A DNA stretch of 64,000 nt from Escherichia phage vB_EcoM-RPN242. The translations under genes and the position numbers were made by a program. This document shows positions 13,261 through 53,149 of this stretch, piece by piece. Location of the stretch: sequence record OL656110.1; one strand, written 5' to 3'. Numbering within the stretch: position 1 is the stretch's first letter; every line of letters begins with the position of its first letter. The notes below the pieces were generated by a model that searched no databases, had not been told where the DNA came from, and was given only the letters and a program-made list of their open reading frames with translations.

Positions 13261-14871
13261 ATGTTAGACAATATGAGATGGTTTTACGGCACCGTTGAAG
13301 ATGTCAACGATCCAGACCAAAATGGGCGAGTTGCTGTTCGCATATATGGCGTACACACCGACGATCCCGTCCTCCTGCCTACGGACAAACTCCCATGGGC
13401 GAAGGTACTGATGCCTGCTTCAAATGCCTCCTCTGCTGGTTTAGGTTGGTCTCCAACGGGTATCATTCCTGGTACTGAGGTTATGGGGTTCGCCCTTGAC
13501 GAAGCATACCAGAATTTACGCATCACCTGGACTTGGACTGGTTCAAGCCCTACTGATGGTGCCGACACAAACCCACTGGCTCTCGGGCAGGTCGTTCAAT
13601 CTGTAGAACGTCAGGCGTACAACGCTGTCACTGACGTTCCTGTGAAACAAGAAGACGAACCACAACCAGATCCACAACCACCTGTTGGTGGGTATGATCC
13701 AGAGAAGTGGATGACAATCGCTCGTGGCGAATTGGGTATCAAGGAGTACGCCGGAAAGTTCAACAACAACCCGCGCATTATAGAATATCACAAGACAACC
13801 TCCCTTGGTGCTTCTGAAGATGAAGTGTCGTGGTGTGCGGCGTTCGTGGGTTGGGTTATGATACAGGCTGGATACACGTCTACACGCTCCGCTCTTGCCC
13901 GATCTTACCTTACATGGGGCACTCCACTGTCAGCACCACAATATGGCGCTATCGTAGTCTTCCGGCGTGGTAACAACCCTACATTTGGACACGTAGCGTT
14001 TGTGCAGAAGTTCGATGCAAACTATGTCTGGTGTATTGGTGGCAACCAATCCGATTCAGTGAAGGTCAGTCGTTTCAGACGTTCTTCGGTCTTGGGATAT
14101 CGTTGGCCTGGTCCTGCTAACACAGCCACAGCCGCGCCTGCGCAGCAGAATGGTAAATGGTCAGAACCTATCCCAGATCGTACTCCAAAGGAACAACCGA
14201 CTCCGGCTCCTACTGGGCGAGTACAGGATATTGACAACACTGGAGAGACCATGGTTCCGGCTGCGGGTGGCTCCAAATACCCGTACAATAACGTCATGGT
14301 GTCCCGAGCTGGGCATATTATGGAAGTGGATGACACCCCTGGTGGTGAACGTCTTCACTGGATGCATAAGTCTGGGTCTTACAAGCAAATGTTGCCGGAT
14401 GGTGATGTGGTCAACAAGTCCGTCAAAGACCACTATGACCTGACGATGTTCAACAAGCGTTATTATGTCGGCGGGGACCACAACCTGACGGTCAAAGGAA
14501 CTGAAGTTCAGCGCAAGACAGGTGAGGTCTATCATTTGCATTCCAACAACTACTCAAATGTGGTTGCGGGCACAGCGCTGATGAAATTCAGTGACCTAGC
14601 GGAAATGCAAGCGCAGAATATTCTGCGCATTATCTGCGAGACTCTGGAGGTCGGTGGGACATTGAAGGTTCCTAAGATTCTAACGACTGAGATAATCGCT
14701 GACAAACTGACTGTCGCTCAGACGATCAATGGTAACATCATATATGCCGAAGGTGCTGGTCGCGCTTCTTCTCTGTCAGGTGCAACCCCTGCATCCCCTA
14801 CGGGTCCGGGTGAGATTGACATCAAGGCAGAATTAAAAGACAATGGTGGTAATTTCGGCACCAAAGAGTAA
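13261..14871 (+). CDS. baseplate central spike protein (gp5/VgrG-like OB-fold N-terminus) with embedded CHAP-type cysteine peptidase domain
   Basis: 536 aa; N-terminal NGRVAVRIYGVHTDDPVLLPTDKLPWAKV; CHAP-like SWCAAFVGWVM ... GHVAFV; Gly/Val-rich C-terminal region. Confidence 0.7.
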   Translation: MLDNMRWFYGTVEDVNDPDQNGRVAVRIYGVHTDDPVLLPTDKLPWAKVLMPASNASSAGLGWSPTGIIPGTEVMGFALDEAYQNLRITWTWTGSSPTDGADTNPLALGQVVQSVERQAYNAVTDVPVKQEDEPQPDPQPPVGGYDPEKWMTIARGELGIKEYAGKFNNNPRIIEYHKTTSLGASEDEVSWCAAFVGWVMIQAGYTSTRSALARSYLTWGTPLSAPQYGAIVVFRRGNNPTFGHVAFVQKFDANYVWCIGGNQSDSVKVSRFRRSSVLGYRWPGPANTATAAPAQQNGKWSEPIPDRTPKEQPTPAPTGRVQDIDNTGETMVPAAGGSKYPYNNVMVSRAGHIMEVDDTPGGERLHWMHKSGSYKQMLPDGDVVNKSVKDHYDLTMFNKRYYVGGDHNLTVKGTEVQRKTGEVYHLHSNNYSNVVAGTALMKFSDLAEMQAQNILRIICETLEVGGTLKVPKILTTEIIADKLTVAQTINGNIIYAEGAGRASSLSGATPASPTGPGEIDIKAELKDNGGNFGTKE

Positions 14872-21257: not shown

Positions 21258-22052
21258 TTAACTGAAACTCTTGTATGCTGCTGCGAGCTTCGTGTCGTAC
21301 TGGTTCTTGGCATACGCCGGACCATTATAGCGCCGCGCAAACTCAGCCCAGTTCTTGTCCTTCAGAGCCTGCCAGAGCTTGGCGTCAGCCTTGATGAACT
21401 TCACGAATGCCATCAAATGAGCACGTTCTCCTGTCAGGAAGTCGTTGAACATCTCCTTGGCGTTGGCATATCCACAGACCTGGCAGTTGAATCCCATGAT
21501 CTGGAAGAGACCGTAAGAGGCGCTCTCGTACGCACAATCCTCATCAATGTTGATGGCCGCATGAAGTCGATCCAACTCCGCGTCGCCGCCCGTGTACCCG
21601 CCTGCAGAAGGGTTGACCAACGTCGGGTACATATGTCCCATGGCATTCGCCCGAGCCTGTCCGAACTTCGCCATCAGCTTTTTATACATGATGTGGCGCT
21701 CAAATAATGTCTTGATCTTACCTGACTTGGTGAAGCCCGTGCCGCGCGACTCAACCTGATTCACCGCCTTGACAGAGGCAAGGTCAACACCCAGATCGTT
21801 AGCAGCATCAATCAGGTCTGACTCAGTTAGATGATCCTGATGGGCGTCTCCGGCGTTGCGAATAGCATAGGAGGTCTTTGGACCCACGATACCATCAATG
21901 ACAAGCCCCGCACCCGCCTGAACAGTCTTGACGGCGTTCTCTGTTGCCTTGCCAAAGATACCATCAGCGACGAGGGTGAAGCCGATTTTGTTGAGGCTAT
22001 CCTGAAGTGCCTTCACTTCAGTACCACGGTTGCCAAATTTTAGAATGGCCAT
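21258..22052 (-). CDS. endolysin: N-terminal peptidoglycan-binding domain + C-terminal muramidase-like domain
   Basis: Start at ATG 22052 with GGAGG RBS; PG-binding-like LKFGNRGTEVKALQDSLNKIGF...DGIFGKATENAVK; C-terminal YGLFQIMGFN region resembling DUF3380-type N-acetylmuramidases. Confidence 0.7.
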   Translation of the reverse strand: MAILKFGNRGTEVKALQDSLNKIGFTLVADGIFGKATENAVKTVQAGAGLVIDGIVGPKTSYAIRNAGDAHQDHLTESDLIDAANDLGVDLASVKAVNQVESRGTGFTKSGKIKTLFERHIMYKKLMAKFGQARANAMGHMYPTLVNPSAGGYTGGDAELDRLHAAINIDEDCAYESASYGLFQIMGFNCQVCGYANAKEMFNDFLTGERAHLMAFVKFIKADAKLWQALKDKNWAEFARRYNGPAYAKNQYDTKLAAAYKSFS

Positions 22053-25684: not shown

Positions 25685-25720
25685 TCAGAAAAAGAAATCC
25701 CCCTGTATTTAGGGGGATTG
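25685..25720 (-). terminator. rho-independent terminator
   Basis: atccccc-tgtattta-gggggat hairpin (25697..25718) followed on minus strand by TTCTTTTTCTG. Confidence 0.6.
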
Positions 25721-26119: not shown

Positions 26120-28840
26120 TCAGATCTTAATCTGCATGTTGCCACCCAGGGACTGCTCGTACTCGCTGTATGCGCCTTCCCCGTAGTCTCGTGCCCACTG
26201 GTCAGACTGCTGGGCGCTATCCAGAGTCATCAGGTTTGGTTCAGTCGGGTTGTAACCCTTGGACTTCGCATCCCGGTACAGAGTCTGCAGGTACTGGTTG
26301 GCGCGGTCAATCTGAGATTTGAACTCGCGATATGCCCCTTCAGTTGTGTTGCGGCGGAAGGTGATATCCCAGTCCACGTTCAGAGTCTGACCATCACGGC
26401 TTGCATAGATCTGCCAATCCAGGTCGCGGCCTTTTGGTGCGTTGTCGCGGATGGAGTCGGCGTATGCCGCAAGGTCGGCACCAGTCTTCTTCGCAGTACT
26501 CGACTCTTTCTCCAGTCTCTCGGTTTCTTTGGACAGGATACCCAACATAAATTCATTAGTGCGGCGATCCGCCATGTCGTACCCGCGCCAAAGGACTGAA
26601 CCGTTGTTGTCAACAGAAATGTCGTCCAAAAATACTTGTTTCGGATTATACGACGTGCTTTTCAGAGTTTGTATATTCCGAGATATCATTTCCATTTTAG
26701 AAGAAATTTCATCGATCACGGCCTGAACAATATCTTTCTTCAAAGTAAGTTCATATGTCTTCGGATTGTTCAGGGTACGACCTTTATTGGATACAATAGG
26801 CGTGATCGCCACTTTGCCTTTGTCGTAGTAATAGGTCACATTCGTGGTCAATACAGCACCATCATACTTCCCAGTTTTCGGGAAATTGACGCCAGACCAA
26901 GTGATGGACATACCGTTGACAGTCTCACCAAACACCATGGCGTTGCTTGGTATATTCAGGGTTCCAGAGTTGACCAGATCAGCGCCTTGGGCATTCAGGT
27001 CGATAGAACCATAGATGGCCCCGGTAATACGATCTTTCAGCATCAGGGTCTTGTCGCCCTTCTCTGGGATGATTTCCAGCGGGTGCTTGCCACGCGGAGG
27101 TTCTTTGATGAGTTCCAGTAGAGCAGTTTTCCCTGGCTTCACACGATTCAGGACAGCGTCGGACACTGTCAGAGTCCAGTTTGCGGTTTCCACATAACCC
27201 CAGCCCCGAGAACGGCGAATGGCTTTGATAGGATATGGAGCGCTTGTTGGCACTGCGCTAATTTCCCATTTGCCAGTGTACTGGGTCTTGGCAACCTCAA
27301 AGATGGACGCAATTACCGCATTGGCGACGTCACGGGCGCTACCTTTGGCCACGTTCTCCTCTTCAGCAATTTCGCTGAAAACTGAGTATTGAACGAAACC
27401 AGCGAGGACGTTTGTGAAGTTGACAACGATAACCAACCCGCCTGCTGTCGTGTAACGACCAGCGCCCACACGACGGATGTTTTCACCAGGAAGAATAGAA
27501 GTGTCCAGCCCAACGTTGGTATCAATGATACCCAGAACACGAGCGATGAAACCACTGTTACGTAATTGATCAACACTGGTTGCACCCTCGGTCGAATCCG
27601 ATGCGGATTTAGACACTTTGTTCAACTTGATAGAGACAAGGGTTTCCCCGTTGACACCGATGATATCCCATTCAGTACCCTGCTCGTTCGAGATGCGAGC
27701 AGTCTTGCGCTTTGAATTGATGGCACCTTCGTAACGCCCGTTCTTGACTACAACAGAGGCTGTGGCAGCATCAGTAGCACTTGCTGCATTTGAAAAGTCT
27801 GGGTCAGAAATACTGATGTCGACGTCACCGTTTTGAGAACGCATGCGAACGCCGTTTTTGAATCGTTCCACGTTTACTTCTCGAGCACCAAGTCGTTTGG
27901 CATCAATAACAGCAGTTCCAGAACCGATAATGTTGGCTGGGTTATTTCTGTCTGAACTGTTTTGAGAACCTTTCCAAAATTTTGTGGACGCTGTGGTGAA
28001 ATCATTCAGGATACTGATAGGGACTTGTGGTAATTTCAACTGACGAGCAATGAAATCAGCACTTTGCCCACGCACAGGTTTCTCATTCATGTATGCGCCA
28101 ACATACACACCCGGCTCATTGTAGTGGGGAGCGATATTTGCCGTGTTCATGCGGCCTCTCTCCTTACCAGCCCATAACAACATGGGCTGATCTCCGTTTG
28201 AAGTTAATTTCCATCCGTTGGAATTATCAACAGAAGATGACACACCCACATCCGGAGTATTGTTCTGAACCGGAACGTCACCGACCTTGTCTGGATCATC
28301 CCAGGTGATACCCTGCATCTTCGGACCGTCGAATACCTGAGCCGGATCTTTACCCTTGCGGACCAGCCACACATAACCACGGTCAGGGACAGGCGCGTAG
28401 GTCAGGTCCATGACATTCAGTTTCTGTTTCAGGCCGGACTGGCGGATGATCTTAGGAATCAGGGTCATACCGCGATCCAGCGCTTTCTTCGAGAAGTTGA
28501 CAGCAAAGCCATCGATGGTTTTGCCCAGAGGAGTCGCCATGAATTGTTTGGTCGCTTCGATCATGGAAGCGATAACGCGCATTGGGTTCTTGAAGCGAGC
28601 GATGGCGTCAGGATAGACGGAGCCGCGCTTCTGGCCGATGAAAACCTGACGAACACTCTTACCCAGCCCCTGAGGGGTATAGAACTGAATACGGTATTCC
28701 TTTTCATCTTCGTCGACGAAGGTGAAGAACACATCGCCTGCGTTCTTCTTACCCATGGTCAGCTCATACGGAGCGGAGTTGAACGCTTCGTCCAACTGAT
28801 CTCTTTCCTGCATGAACTGGAGGAAACTTAGCTTTGACAT
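26120..28840 (-). CDS. large hypothetical protein (906 aa), possible virion/ejected protein
   Basis: Complete ORF with ATG start and AGGAGATATAAA leader; no nucleotide-binding or catalytic motif recognised. Confidence 0.7.
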   Translation of the reverse strand: MSKLSFLQFMQERDQLDEAFNSAPYELTMGKKNAGDVFFTFVDEDEKEYRIQFYTPQGLGKSVRQVFIGQKRGSVYPDAIARFKNPMRVIASMIEATKQFMATPLGKTIDGFAVNFSKKALDRGMTLIPKIIRQSGLKQKLNVMDLTYAPVPDRGYVWLVRKGKDPAQVFDGPKMQGITWDDPDKVGDVPVQNNTPDVGVSSSVDNSNGWKLTSNGDQPMLLWAGKERGRMNTANIAPHYNEPGVYVGAYMNEKPVRGQSADFIARQLKLPQVPISILNDFTTASTKFWKGSQNSSDRNNPANIIGSGTAVIDAKRLGAREVNVERFKNGVRMRSQNGDVDISISDPDFSNAASATDAATASVVVKNGRYEGAINSKRKTARISNEQGTEWDIIGVNGETLVSIKLNKVSKSASDSTEGATSVDQLRNSGFIARVLGIIDTNVGLDTSILPGENIRRVGAGRYTTAGGLVIVVNFTNVLAGFVQYSVFSEIAEEENVAKGSARDVANAVIASIFEVAKTQYTGKWEISAVPTSAPYPIKAIRRSRGWGYVETANWTLTVSDAVLNRVKPGKTALLELIKEPPRGKHPLEIIPEKGDKTLMLKDRITGAIYGSIDLNAQGADLVNSGTLNIPSNAMVFGETVNGMSITWSGVNFPKTGKYDGAVLTTNVTYYYDKGKVAITPIVSNKGRTLNNPKTYELTLKKDIVQAVIDEISSKMEMISRNIQTLKSTSYNPKQVFLDDISVDNNGSVLWRGYDMADRRTNEFMLGILSKETERLEKESSTAKKTGADLAAYADSIRDNAPKGRDLDWQIYASRDGQTLNVDWDITFRRNTTEGAYREFKSQIDRANQYLQTLYRDAKSKGYNPTEPNLMTLDSAQQSDQWARDYGEGAYSEYEQSLGGNMQIKI

Positions 28841-29251: not shown

Positions 29252-29357
29252 GATATAGTTCCTGCTATTCAAGTTGGTGTCGTACTGCTTATGGAATGAA
29301 GTATAGGGAAGGATATTGAAGAAGTAAAGGGGCGAAAGCCCCTTTTATTGAATTATT
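29252..29357 (-). promoter_or_regulatory. intergenic cassette A: hairpin terminator + TTTACT-N17-TATACT promoter + conserved leader
   Basis: Hairpin ggggc-gaaa-gcccc (29329..29342); minus-strand -35 TTTACT (29323..29328), 17-nt spacer, -10 TATACT (29300..29305); 20-nt block 29286..29305 identical to 63331..63350. Confidence 0.5.
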
Positions 29358-29996
29358 TTACGGCGTCGGATTCACAACCGGAATGTGGGATCGAATACCT
29401 GCGATGATGTCCTTCAGCTGAGGCTTCCATCCATCCACCAAACGGGGTAGAGCGATAGCACCAGGCTGAACTAAAATGATGTCGCTGCCTGTGATATTGT
29501 GCTGAGGGAACTGGGCAAGGTACTGCTCCATGGTGACACCCTCATCAATCAGAACCGCACCGACGTCAGACGATGCGTAGGTTGCACCCAGACCGTCAAC
29601 ACCCCACGCCAAAATACCCCAGTCAGGGATGTTGGCTTCAGATGTGATAGTGAATCCAAACACGGTGTTCAGTGATGTAAAGGAGTAGACATCGTGGGTG
29701 ATGTCATACACCAGATACCCCTTGGTCAGCATATCGGCAAAGATCGCGTCCGTATCGCCAGCAGTCGGAGTCGGTACAGTAAACAACAGCTCGCCATCAG
29801 GAGGAGCAGGGTATGTGCTGAGGGCATAGAGGCACCATGCGTCAATACACTTCTTGATAAATGCCTCCGGTGCGACATAATCAGCAAGGCGAACCGTACC
29901 TGAGTACTCGGATACGATGATGCCTTCCTTCGCACCCTGTAGAGCAATGAAGACCAAGATATGTTCATATCCGGCCTGAGATGGAGTGATGTTCAT
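29358..29996 (-). CDS. hypothetical protein (212 aa)
   Basis: Start at ATG 29996 (MNITPSQ...), overlapping the upstream stop. Confidence 0.55.
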   Translation of the reverse strand: MNITPSQAGYEHILVFIALQGAKEGIIVSEYSGTVRLADYVAPEAFIKKCIDAWCLYALSTYPAPPDGELLFTVPTPTAGDTDAIFADMLTKGYLVYDITHDVYSFTSLNTVFGFTITSEANIPDWGILAWGVDGLGATYASSDVGAVLIDEGVTMEQYLAQFPQHNITGSDIILVQPGAIALPRLVDGWKPQLKDIIAGIRSHIPVVNPTP

Positions 29997-30610
29997 TATC
30001 TTGTCCTCTTCAGTTTCTCTATTGTGTGCTTGTTCATGGTGATCACCTGAGGATCTACCTCGGAGATGGTCCGGCCTTCGAAGGACACACATTTCTGAAG
30101 ATATTTAGCTTTCTTCACGACGTCGGCAGCATAAGCGTTCGATGCAGGATTACGGGCGAAGCCAGCATTGTAAGAGGAGAGGGATTTGCGGATATTCTGA
30201 TTGTGATAGGTCAGCCAGAACTGCATCTCATCGAGGGCGGCTTGCGCGGCATATTCTTGGTCGGTCAGCAACTTTATAGCGACATTGGCATAGCACTTGC
30301 GATTCTTACAACCTTCGCGATCACCAACTGTCTTCACCTTGTTCTGAAAGGCTCCCATGTTGGCCGCCTTGAGGTCGTATCGCATTGACACTACATCTTC
30401 ACCAGCGCGGCTCTCTCGCCAAGATATGGCGGCCAGAGTGTAGCCAAGATCTTGTGTCTTGCCTACGTGATAGGCGGTTGCCAGCGTATTAAGTTGTTGC
30501 TCGGAGAAATTATAATCGCATTGGGTGGTACTTTGGGAAGCGTGCACATTCCCGCTGGCAATGGTAAAGGTCACGGACAAGGCCATGGCCTTCAACGTTG
30601 TCATCGTCAT
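29996..30610 (-). CDS. secreted SLT-domain protein (lytic transglycosylase-like) with signal peptide
   Basis: 204 aa; N-terminal signal-like MTMTTLKAMALSVTFTIASGNVHA; SLT motifs LAAISWRESRAGED (catalytic ES) and SSYNAGF. Confidence 0.6.
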   Translation of the reverse strand: MTMTTLKAMALSVTFTIASGNVHASQSTTQCDYNFSEQQLNTLATAYHVGKTQDLGYTLAAISWRESRAGEDVVSMRYDLKAANMGAFQNKVKTVGDREGCKNRKCYANVAIKLLTDQEYAAQAALDEMQFWLTYHNQNIRKSLSSYNAGFARNPASNAYAADVVKKAKYLQKCVSFEGRTISEVDPQVITMNKHTIEKLKRTR

Positions 30611-30707
30611 GATGGCGTTCCTTATGTTTTGTCGACTTGCAGCTCGCTTGAGCCTCCTGACAGGGGTTAAAAGATAAAGGGCACGTGGTATTTAGTGCCC
30701 TTCAGCC

Positions 30708-51955: not shown

Positions 51956-53149
51956 TTACTTTTTAAATAAATTTAGTAGGTTTTTAGAACCAGATGTCGC
52001 TTTAGGTTGTCCTTCCCCATCGTATCCAACCTTCCCGCGCGGTTTTTTACCTTGCTGTACAGCCTCTACACAACGGGTATATTTCTGAAGTTCACAAAAC
52101 ATATTTTCTCCTGCCATTATATTTAAATGGCGATCCCAAGGCTCTTCCACAGACCAAAATTCTTCCCTGTTATACCCAAGAGGACCATAAACTGCGTCCT
52201 GGTTGTCCCGTAGCCAGAAGATGCATTCTTCGTGGGTCATACCGTCTTTGTTCAGGAACAGCAGATCAATACCTGCGCGACAGCCTGGTCCAGCAACCGT
52301 GAAGTGGTTCTCACTGAAAGGATATTCAGGAATGTAAGTGAAGTCTACCCAGATCTGATAGGCCAGGAATGGACCAAGCCCTTCGATGTCGTCATACATG
52401 CGCTGGTATACTTCCAAAGGAGTACCAAGGCGCAGCAGGTCATGGAAATAATTTGGATACTTGTTGACGAATGCCTTCAGGGAGCGGATGACACGCATTG
52501 GCATGTACGGTTCCCAACCTTCGATGGTGTAGAAGTCCGGCTCTGCTTCGGCTATCGCCTTGGCTTCTTTATAATCCATGTTCTGGGTTGAACCGTCTTT
52601 ACAGATCAGATTCACCATCATCCCACCGAAGCGCTGCTCCTTGTGGTTGACAACCATCTCAGGGAAAGCCAGGCATTGCTTCAGGCCGCCCGTGTTGAAG
52701 GCATTGGTGAATACCTTACCGCCGTCGGCCTCGAACTTCTGAAGTCGTTCGCGGGTTGCATCGAGGTTGATCTCGGCGAATTCTTTGATCGTCATCGCGC
52801 CGCCGATAGCCTGGATTGGATCCCAGAGGTTGAACATGCGGAACATCACGCAGTTGAACATCTTGTCGGCCATACCCAGAGCATCGTTGTTGACAATGTT
52901 GTTGATCAGGTTGAGAGACTGCCTGTCGTGCTCTCTCCGGACATTACAGAACTTGACCTGCCGTAGTATGGGATTATCAGTCCAAGGAGCAGGAAGGCGC
53001 TGGACGTCCTTCTTGACGTGGATCTGATAACGATCGCGCATCCATTCGTAAGACAGGCGGGTATGGGTCGGACTGAGAACCGGTTTGGCCGACTTTATCT
53101 TTTCTTCACGGACACCGCAGTACGGGACGTCTAGGGCTTTATCTTTCAT
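51956..53149 (-). CDS. hypothetical enzyme-sized protein (397 aa)
   Basis: ATG start with AAGAGGATACC leader; no motif recognised. Confidence 0.65.
   Translation of the reverse strand: MKDKALDVPYCGVREEKIKSAKPVLSPTHTRLSYEWMRDRYQIHVKKDVQRLPAPWTDNPILRQVKFCNVRREHDRQSLNLINNIVNNDALGMADKMFNCVMFRMFNLWDPIQAIGGAMTIKEFAEINLDATRERLQKFEADGGKVFTNAFNTGGLKQCLAFPEMVVNHKEQRFGGMMVNLICKDGSTQNMDYKEAKAIAEAEPDFYTIEGWEPYMPMRVIRSLKAFVNKYPNYFHDLLRLGTPLEVYQRMYDDIEGLGPFLAYQIWVDFTYIPEYPFSENHFTVAGPGCRAGIDLLFLNKDGMTHEECIFWLRDNQDAVYGPLGYNREEFWSVEEPWDRHLNIMAGENMFCELQKYTRCVEAVQQGKKPRGKVGYDGEGQPKATSGSKNLLNLFKK

Follow-up and report, generated by a model that had tools for sequence, protein, structure and literature searches.

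The stretch of DNA considered here, hereafter the window, comprises 64,000 nucleotides of Escherichia phage vB_EcoM-RPN242 (sequence record OL656110.1), a ViI-like phage of the Ackermannviridae, and the gene under study occupies positions 29996..30610 of its minus strand. Profile and similarity searches identify this gene as the Ackermannviridae orthologue of T4 vs.1, that is, as a member of an already known family (phrog_600). Its product is probably a periplasmic accessory murein glycosidase which is neither an endolysin nor a virion entry enzyme. A first-pass annotation had proposed a secreted SLT-domain lytic transglycosylase, separate from the endolysin, that might act as a signal-dependent lysis enzyme. 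In general terms, the picture of a very probably exported GH23 enzyme, apart from the endolysin and outside the virion, is supported, while its novelty, a link with T4 Spackle and a CHAP-bearing spike, and a primary role in lysis are not.

The coding sequence starts at the first ATG downstream of an in-frame stop and encodes 204 aa, including the signal peptide; its stop overlaps the next ATG by 1 nt. A Shine-Dalgarno sequence, AAGGA (30619..30623, minus strand), lies 8 nt before the ATG and is invariant in two alignments. The ratio of nonsynonymous to synonymous substitution rates (dN/dS), calculated against 4 orthologues, is 0.07-0.20, which corresponds to strong purifying selection and, in consequence, to a real, selected gene. 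The surrounding region shares 97-98% identity with Agtrevirus-type Ackermannviridae (e.g., Escherichia phages A221, PC3, and YX22), and the same gene order is found at the locus in Shigella phage AG3, Dickeya phage LIMEstone1, and Salmonella phage Vi01.

Membership of the Vs.1 family is supported by several searches. The protein matches the phrog_600 profile (annotated as of 'unknown function') with an E-value of 1.7e-59, residues 7-179 being aligned with profile positions 4-176 of 178, and T4 Vs.1 (UniProt P13311) matches the same profile with an E-value of 2.1e-68. A direct BLASTP comparison of both proteins gives an E-value of 2e-18 and 29% identity over 171 aa. The family also takes in T4, Felix-like, and Vibrio K368 homologues. 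With tblastn, relatives were recovered in 2,127 phage records, which cover (i) Ackermannviridae; (ii) T4-like Straboviridae infecting Escherichia, Klebsiella, Acinetobacter, Aeromonas, and Vibrio; and (iii) Felix-O1-like phages, the T4 match being the vs.1 locus, between regB and vs. With clustering at 50% identity, an exhaustive profile search yielded 817 clusters, of which 553 have E <= 1e-10, and the best 150 of the 817 are mostly 160-200 aa long. NCBIfam returned no match for the protein. From this distribution, the family seems to be confined to large virulent myoviruses whose hosts are Gram-negative. As the SLT similarity of the T4 Vs.1 family had already been published (PMC1524935), the protein cannot be presented as novel.

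Some observations on this distribution can be added. A scan of bacterial genome contigs, carried out with a single peptide pattern and thus of low sensitivity, detected one locus only, on a 178-kb Flagellimonas marina contig (NZ_JBHSCL010000010.1). This contig encodes PIN-PhoH, thymidine kinase, and macro-domain-like open reading frames (ORFs) near the homologue and has the look of a large phage genome contained in this assembly; a bacterial homologue was therefore not upheld. In Felix-O1-like phages, as seen in Felixounavirus warpig (L006 2417..2965), the homologue comes directly after rIIA-rIIB, with the genes for i-spanin and o-spanin lying about 1.2 kb further downstream. The rII genes are present in every phage group seen with the family, a correlation of shared ancestry.

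Regarding the fold, the Pfam SLT domain (PF01464) is matched with an E-value of 3.8e-4, and all 13 of 13 aligned relatives also match it (E up to 0.1; best 1.4e-5). An AlphaFold model built with 17 homologues places residues 28-204 at a predicted local distance difference test score (pLDDT) >90, and residues 1-27 at <50, unstructured. In silico evidence thus supports an enzyme of the lysozyme-like, alpha-helical GH23/SLT fold whose catalytic Glu is intact. All conservation counts given here were taken over 151 divergent family representatives. Glu66 (codon at 30413..30415, minus strand), which belongs to the E-S motif in ISWRES, is invariant (151/151) and aligns with the E-S motif glutamate of EtgA and g-type lysozyme, the catalytic residue of both enzymes. 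Position 67 is universally S or T. The SLT motif III, Y147-N148-A149-G150 in SSYNAG (30161..30172, minus strand), keeps its Tyr and Gly in 150/151 representatives each and its Asn in 132/151. Motif II appears as the variant G86-A-F-Q89 (family-wide, G-x-[FY]-[HQ]), and Y160 and Q39 are each present in 150/151. The catalytic ES and YNAG motifs that the first-pass annotation had read from the sequence are, then, in place (Glu66-Ser67 and Y147-G150) and near-invariant in the family. No second carboxylate near E66 is conserved over the representatives, D79 being variable; this indirectly favours lytic transglycosylase chemistry over hydrolysis and makes it the most probable one for the enzyme. Despite this preference, the local match of the Glu66 region to the catalytic motif of g-type lysozyme is striking.

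The N-terminus has the layout of a predicted Sec signal peptide for signal peptidase I (SPase I), MTMTTLKAMALSVTFTIASGNVHA, spanning codons 1-24 (30539..30610, minus strand) with cleavage before Ser25. On heuristic grounds, it can be divided into (i) an n-region, MTMTTLK, whose one basic residue is K7; (ii) a hydrophobic core of 11 residues, AMALSVTFTIA, with a mean Kyte-Doolittle value of 1.85; and (iii) a c-region, SGNVHA, followed by SQ, in which V22-H-A24 provides the -3/-1 site ahead of S25. A hydrophobic segment precedes the first conserved column in 138/151 representatives and in most cases leads into an AXA-type site, after which a Cys comes. The corresponding N-termini are MRKALLAGLLAISMMAHS, before SEH, in T4 Vs.1 and MKKLILGLCLMFTAHLSYA, before VDC, in a Felix-like phage. 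The signal-peptide-like N-terminus reported at first pass is consequently a property of the family, and the protein is very probably exported.

Two forms of membrane attachment were considered and rejected. A lipobox (L-[AS]-[GA]-C) is absent from the protein, where C31 is preceded by T-T-Q, and is present in 3/151 representatives, so that an Mlt-type lipoprotein lytic transglycosylase is ruled out. Likewise, the weakly hydrophobic transmembrane domain of a signal-anchor-release (SAR) endolysin is about 18-20 residues long and has no cleavage site, and the protein has instead an 11-residue core and a canonical cleavage site between VHA and S; the shortness of the core disfavours a membrane anchor. 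On the other side of the membrane, disulfide bonds are predicted. Cys31 and Cys174 co-vary (67 representatives have both, 53 neither, and 31 a single one; Fisher p 2.5e-13, not corrected for phylogeny), and such joint gain and loss is the pattern expected of a disulfide in an oxidising compartment. Cys101 and Cys106 form a clade-specific pair. From the residues concerned, we infer both export and disulfide formation.

Two other murein-directed enzymes are encoded elsewhere in the window, as the first-pass annotation had noted. A distinct endolysin, with PG_binding_1 and N-acetylmuramidase (PF11860) domains, lies at 21258..22052 (minus strand), and a gp5-like baseplate spike carrying Gp5_OB and a CHAP peptidase instead of a lysozyme lies at 13261..14871 (plus strand). 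Given this separate peptidoglycan-binding endolysin and the export signal of the 29996..30610 protein, its identity as the canonical holin-dependent endolysin is ruled out. The suggested connection of the enzyme with Spackle and with the CHAP spike is not supported either, as T4, whose gp5 has a lysozyme, and Felix-O1-like phages also carry the family. T4 combines Vs.1 with gp5 lysozyme and the gene e endolysin; since T4 and Ackermannviridae pair it differently, the presence of Vs.1 is independent of the type of spike enzyme or endolysin.

With respect to the virion, the LIMEstone1 orthologue ORF086 ('putative RegB') does not appear in the set of 39 proteins that electrospray ionisation tandem mass spectrometry (ESI-MS/MS) identified in virions, and ORF085, the DUF7270 protein whose gene overlaps the ORF086 stop, was found in virions with 4 peptides (PMC3296691). 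The absence of ORF086 agrees with an exported protein. The Vi01 record describes the DUF7270 orthologue Vi01_096c as a 'phage associated protein' and the Vs.1 orthologue Vi01_097c only as a 'conserved uncharacterised protein'; in our interpretation, the former label marks mass-spectrometry (MS) detection. Both lines of evidence speak against a virion component used for entry, an option that the first-pass annotation had kept in view. The virion proteome of phiD3, with just 10 proteins identified, is uninformative for the Vs.1 orthologue.

Most of what can be said about the role of the family comes from T4. The SLT similarity of vs.1 was noted by Nolan et al. (2006), who referred to earlier PSI-BLAST work and suggested that it has some part in lysis of the cell (PMC1524935). 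In time-resolved omics, T4 vs.1 has early RNA and middle protein (PMC9697503 supplements). In the CRISPRi-ART screen it was 'Semi-Fit' (mean 0.81, Kolmogorov-Smirnov p 0.099), and was named among the five such T4 genes whose function is purely unknown (PMC11879866 supplements), and HIDEN-SEQ transposon mutagenesis found it non-essential, with 46/52 sites hit (bioRxiv 10.1101/2025.11.20.689424 supplement). The homologue of SUSP1, a Felix-like phage, was 'Not Fit'. Searches of the literature for vs.1 function or Ackermannviridae transcriptomes gave nothing more than the domain note of 2006 and the genome-wide screens. In T4, mutants of gene e do not lyse although vs.1 is present, and hence Vs.1 cannot cause lysis alone. 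With the T4 gene early and non-essential, the primary signal-dependent lysis enzyme of the first-pass annotation is unlikely.

As for the biological role of the 29996..30610 product, we infer the following sequence of events: (i) a precursor of 22.8 kDa would be made; (ii) Sec would export it and signal peptidase I would cut after VHA24; (iii) periplasmic oxidation would form the Cys31-Cys174 and the clade-specific Cys101-Cys106 disulfides; (iv) the mature protein would be a soluble, basic (pI about 9.2), 20-kDa GH23 enzyme; and (v) this enzyme would use Glu66 as its only acid/base to cleave MurNAc-GlcNAc bonds in the sacculus of the host. Murein would then be nicked or loosened from the periplasmic side during infection, independently of the holin-endolysin pathway. 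The benefit would be that of a non-essential accessory, i.e., a modest gain in phage yield or lysis efficiency, which might come from faster or fuller lysis, from growth of the infected envelope, or from conflict with other phages or host defences.

Several points weigh against this reading. The signal peptide call is heuristic: the core is short and moderately hydrophobic, at about the level of MalE (an illustrative comparison), and the n-region has a single Lys. The Pfam SLT score is slightly under the gathering threshold (20.5 vs 21.3 bits), and no enzymology for any Vs.1-family member was found in the searchable literature. The fitness data all come from T4 and SUSP1, none from an Ackermannviridae phage. 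The LIMEstone1 MS analysis also missed gp4 and gp53, which makes absence from that proteome weak evidence (PMC3296691). Finally, the gene is fused in one unit with a virion-protein gene, behind a hairpin with a late-promoter-like TAAATA loop, and this layout could mean late expression and a tighter link to lysis than in T4.

The last of these points is best judged on the layout itself. The downstream gene (29358..29996, minus strand) encodes the 212-aa DUF7270 protein, whose orthologue is an MS-confirmed virion protein, and is translationally coupled to the Vs.1 gene through the 1-nt overlap, which is kept in Agtrevirus, Limestonevirus, Kuttervirus, Miltonvirus, Nezavisimistyvirus, and a Klebsiella Ackermannviridae phage. 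The two-gene unit is bounded by hairpins. A GC-rich one closes it (29323..29349), and a terminator-like one precedes it (30675..30704, minus strand), with a GGGCAC/GTGCCC stem, a T-run, and CTAAATAC in the loop; the latter suggests the -10 element of a late promoter embedded in the terminator loop. In phage CRW-SP2, the stem is replaced by different, complementary arms (a compensatory change) and the TAAATA of the loop is kept. The only comparable element in the window is a twin terminator-like hairpin (25696..25719, minus strand), also with a TAAATAC loop followed by a T-run, that precedes the orthologue of LIMEstone1 ORF078, another MS-confirmed virion protein. Both TAAATAC hairpins thus stand ahead of an operon holding the orthologue of a LIMEstone1 virion protein (ORF085 and ORF078, respectively).

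It might be argued from this layout that the product is a genuine second lysis enzyme, made late with DUF7270, exported by Sec, then either cleaved or held by a SAR-like tether, and quiescent until depolarisation is triggered by the holin, in the manner of Sec-dependent and SAR endolysins. Besides the pairing with the gene of a virion, and hence late, protein, conserved in at least five genera, and the loop with its sole twin before another virion-protein gene, such a view can draw on the uncharged stretch 8-31, rich in Ala, Ser, Thr, and Gly. Nevertheless, a core of 11 residues falls short of a SAR transmembrane helix, and the canonical site after VHA comes next; a complete endolysin that has a late-promoter-like element of its own is encoded elsewhere; T4 vs.1 is early and non-essential, and its presence does not rescue lysis in gene e mutants. 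The regulatory signal is itself uneven. The T4-type TATAAATA was not found within 200 nt upstream of the gene, and the loop of the Klebsiella phage reads TAATTA instead of TAAATA, contrary to a late promoter. No sigma-70-type promoter was found upstream of the gene. Miltonvirus and Nezavisimistyvirus lack the 30675..30704 hairpin, the gene coming there straight after a DUF4326/NrdA.1-like gene, and the 'late promoter' coordinates given for LIMEstone1 at the locus point to CTCATC and look shifted. A second lysis enzyme is, on balance, unlikely.

The region between the terminator-like hairpin and the early codons has a further peculiarity. A nucleotide conservation island (30529..30707, minus strand) runs from the terminator hairpin through the 5' leader and on to about codon 27, with 0.90-1.00 identity to Kuttervirus and Klebsiella phages vs 0.5-0.8 in the neighbouring coding DNA. 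The island is accompanied by a freeze of synonymous sites, which are otherwise saturated in the gene (dS ~1.5-1.7 in the orthologue comparison). Among codons for identical amino acids, 23/23 are unchanged between the window and phage Mooltan in codons 1-27, vs 61/138 in the remainder (p 6.5e-8); the corresponding early-codon values are 20/21 for the Klebsiella phage (p 2.4e-5) and 16/19 for CRW-SP2 (p 0.003). Within the leader lies a small hairpin, GGCTC-AAGC-GAGCT (30641..30654, minus strand), whose loop is variable and whose stem is invariant in 8 Ackermannviridae, so that it shows no covariation. In Miltonvirus, the hairpin falls inside the upstream coding region and its conservation there may be partly protein-coding.

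Three explanations for the island were tried and rejected: (i) an antisense ORF (plus strand, 30525..30677, 50 aa), as leader indels of 1-2 nt shift its frame and the C-termini differ; (ii) a stable RNA fold over the leader and early codons, as the minimum free energy (MFE) z-score is +0.86 and no Rfam family matches; and (iii) a repeated regulatory motif, as the leader motifs are unique within the window. A broader and rather doubtful proposal is that Vs.1 enzymes might constitute a class of their own among phage murein enzymes, independent of the holin and exported before lysis to pre-nick the sacculus or otherwise condition the envelope. In ViI-like phages their synthesis would be gated by the late-promoter-like TAAATA of the terminator loop, the GGCUC/GAGCU hairpin, and the frozen signal-peptide codons, export thereby being tied to the co-translated DUF7270.

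In a role in phage-phage or phage-host conflict, the enzyme would alter murein or act on incoming particles, with an effect on superinfection, on lysis from without, or on a host defence linked to the envelope. Such a role would suit the early timing of vs.1 in T4, the position of the Felix-O1-like gene directly after rIIA-rIIB, and the confinement of the family to large virulent myoviruses of diderm hosts; in addition, the CRISPRi-ART authors placed vs.1 among genes of unknown function possibly hiding anti-defence functions (PMC11879866). Against it, no partner gene is conserved (the neighbours are regB and vs in T4, rIIB and pnk in Felix-like phages, DUF7270 in Ackermannviridae, and others again in Vibrio phage K368), and glycan cleavage offers no obvious path to exclusion; this role is decidedly unlikely.

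The protein could also be imagined as a virion-associated entry enzyme that helps the tail through the murein and complements the CHAP peptidase of the spike. SLT-type virion lysins are common in phages, T4 Vs.1 weakly matches phrog_2013, 'lytic tail protein' (E 9.8e-6), and the product of the adjacent gene is found in the virion. This is nevertheless very improbable, for the LIMEstone1 and Vi01 data give no sign of the orthologue in virions, the export signal seen across the family is incompatible with assembly in the cytoplasm, the small stand-alone domain has no attachment module, and T4 has Vs.1 besides the gp5 lysozyme. Finally, a catalytically dead lysozyme-fold protein binding murein or an enzyme, as a scaffold or inhibitor, would fit the marginal Pfam SLT similarity and a family for which activity was never shown, but it is hardly credible when the catalytic Glu and the SLT signature residues are invariant or near-invariant in the 151 representatives, the very pattern that selection for catalysis would produce.

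The accessory periplasmic glycosidase remains, then, the preferred reading. As to annotation, the records of AG3 and Bue1 already name the gene 'Vs.1 conserved hypothetical protein'. In GenBank, its labels range over 'lytic transglycosylase', 'SLT domain-containing protein', 'putative transglycosylase', 'MltF', and 'RegB', and many records use 'RegB', 'endoribonuclease', or 'site-specific RNA endonuclease' (e.g., L004 10416..11030; L007 2501..3118). The mislabelling as RegB probably arose because vs.1 adjoins regB in T4. The RegB identity is ruled out, since the sole PHROG match is phrog_600 and T4 regB, the neighbouring gene, belongs to phrog_1323; the names 'RegB', 'endoribonuclease', and 'MltF' are wrong for this gene. 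The coding sequences deposited at the loci of AG3 (L001 4296..4913) and Bue1 (L011 1501..2100) use an internal Met and encode only 130 aa, thus losing the signal peptide and the catalytic Glu; the intact full-length ORF encodes 204 aa in AG3 and 199 aa in Bue1.

Two further features of the window were recorded. A 906-aa ORF (26120..28840, minus strand), assigned to phrog_3867 and with no Pfam domain, corresponds to a large virion protein: its Vi01 counterpart, Vi01_094c, is a 'phage associated protein', and LIMEstone1 has the region divided between two ORFs, ORF081 and ORF082, each of them confirmed as a virion protein. At 51956..53149 (minus strand), a 5-hmdU DNA kinase helical domain (PF18723) is encoded, which we take to indicate the thymidine hypermodification pathway typical of ViI-like phages.

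The Vs.1 family is one of the few widely conserved among T4-superfamily genes with a biochemistry that can be predicted with confidence and a role that is only proposed. The biochemical prediction is an ordinary one that will not surprise specialists; the frozen segment of leader and signal-peptide codons may count as a curiosity. A small, basic muralytic domain, with its predicted disulfides and adaptation to the periplasm, may have some interest for enzybiotic engineering.

The enzyme can be compared with several known systems. Goose-type lysozyme (GH23) is a hydrolase through its Asp residues, which have no conserved counterpart here, D79 not being conserved. The bacterial family-1 lytic transglycosylases of GH23 (Slt70, MltF, MltC, MltE, and MltD) differ in their superhelical, LysM, or ABC-like accessory domains and lipobox, all absent from the 29996..30610 protein, and in their motif II (G-L-M-Q vs G-A-F-Q); the Pfam SLT score below gathering belongs to the same set of differences. 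Among the specialised small lytic transglycosylases, EtgA belongs to the same class as IpgF, IagB, VirB1, and P19, lytic transglycosylases of secretion or conjugation machines. Sequence identity with EtgA is only about 17%, its conserved second carboxylate, Asp60, has no counterpart in the phage protein, and no envelope-spanning machine is encoded adjacent to the phage gene. With Sec-exported and SAR endolysins (fOg44 Lys44, P1 Lyz, and phage 21 R), the likeness lies in a murein hydrolase of a phage that needs no holin to enter the periplasm, as predicted here; but each of those is the only endolysin of its phage and sits in the lysis cassette, whereas here a separate canonical endolysin is present and the T4 orthologue is early and non-essential.

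The closest relative is T4 Vs.1 itself, although the two versions have diverged. T4 Vs.1 has no Cys and carries a 15-aa insert after the first helix, whereas the Ackermannviridae version lacks this insert, has four Cys, and adds a C-terminal helical extension of ~30 aa that ends in KLKRTR. Their genomic neighbours differ as well (regB and vs in T4; DUF7270 in Ackermannviridae). In any case, both are of one size class, begin with a signal-peptide-like N-terminus, and carry the motifs E-S, G-x-F-Q, S-Y-N-x-G, and Y.

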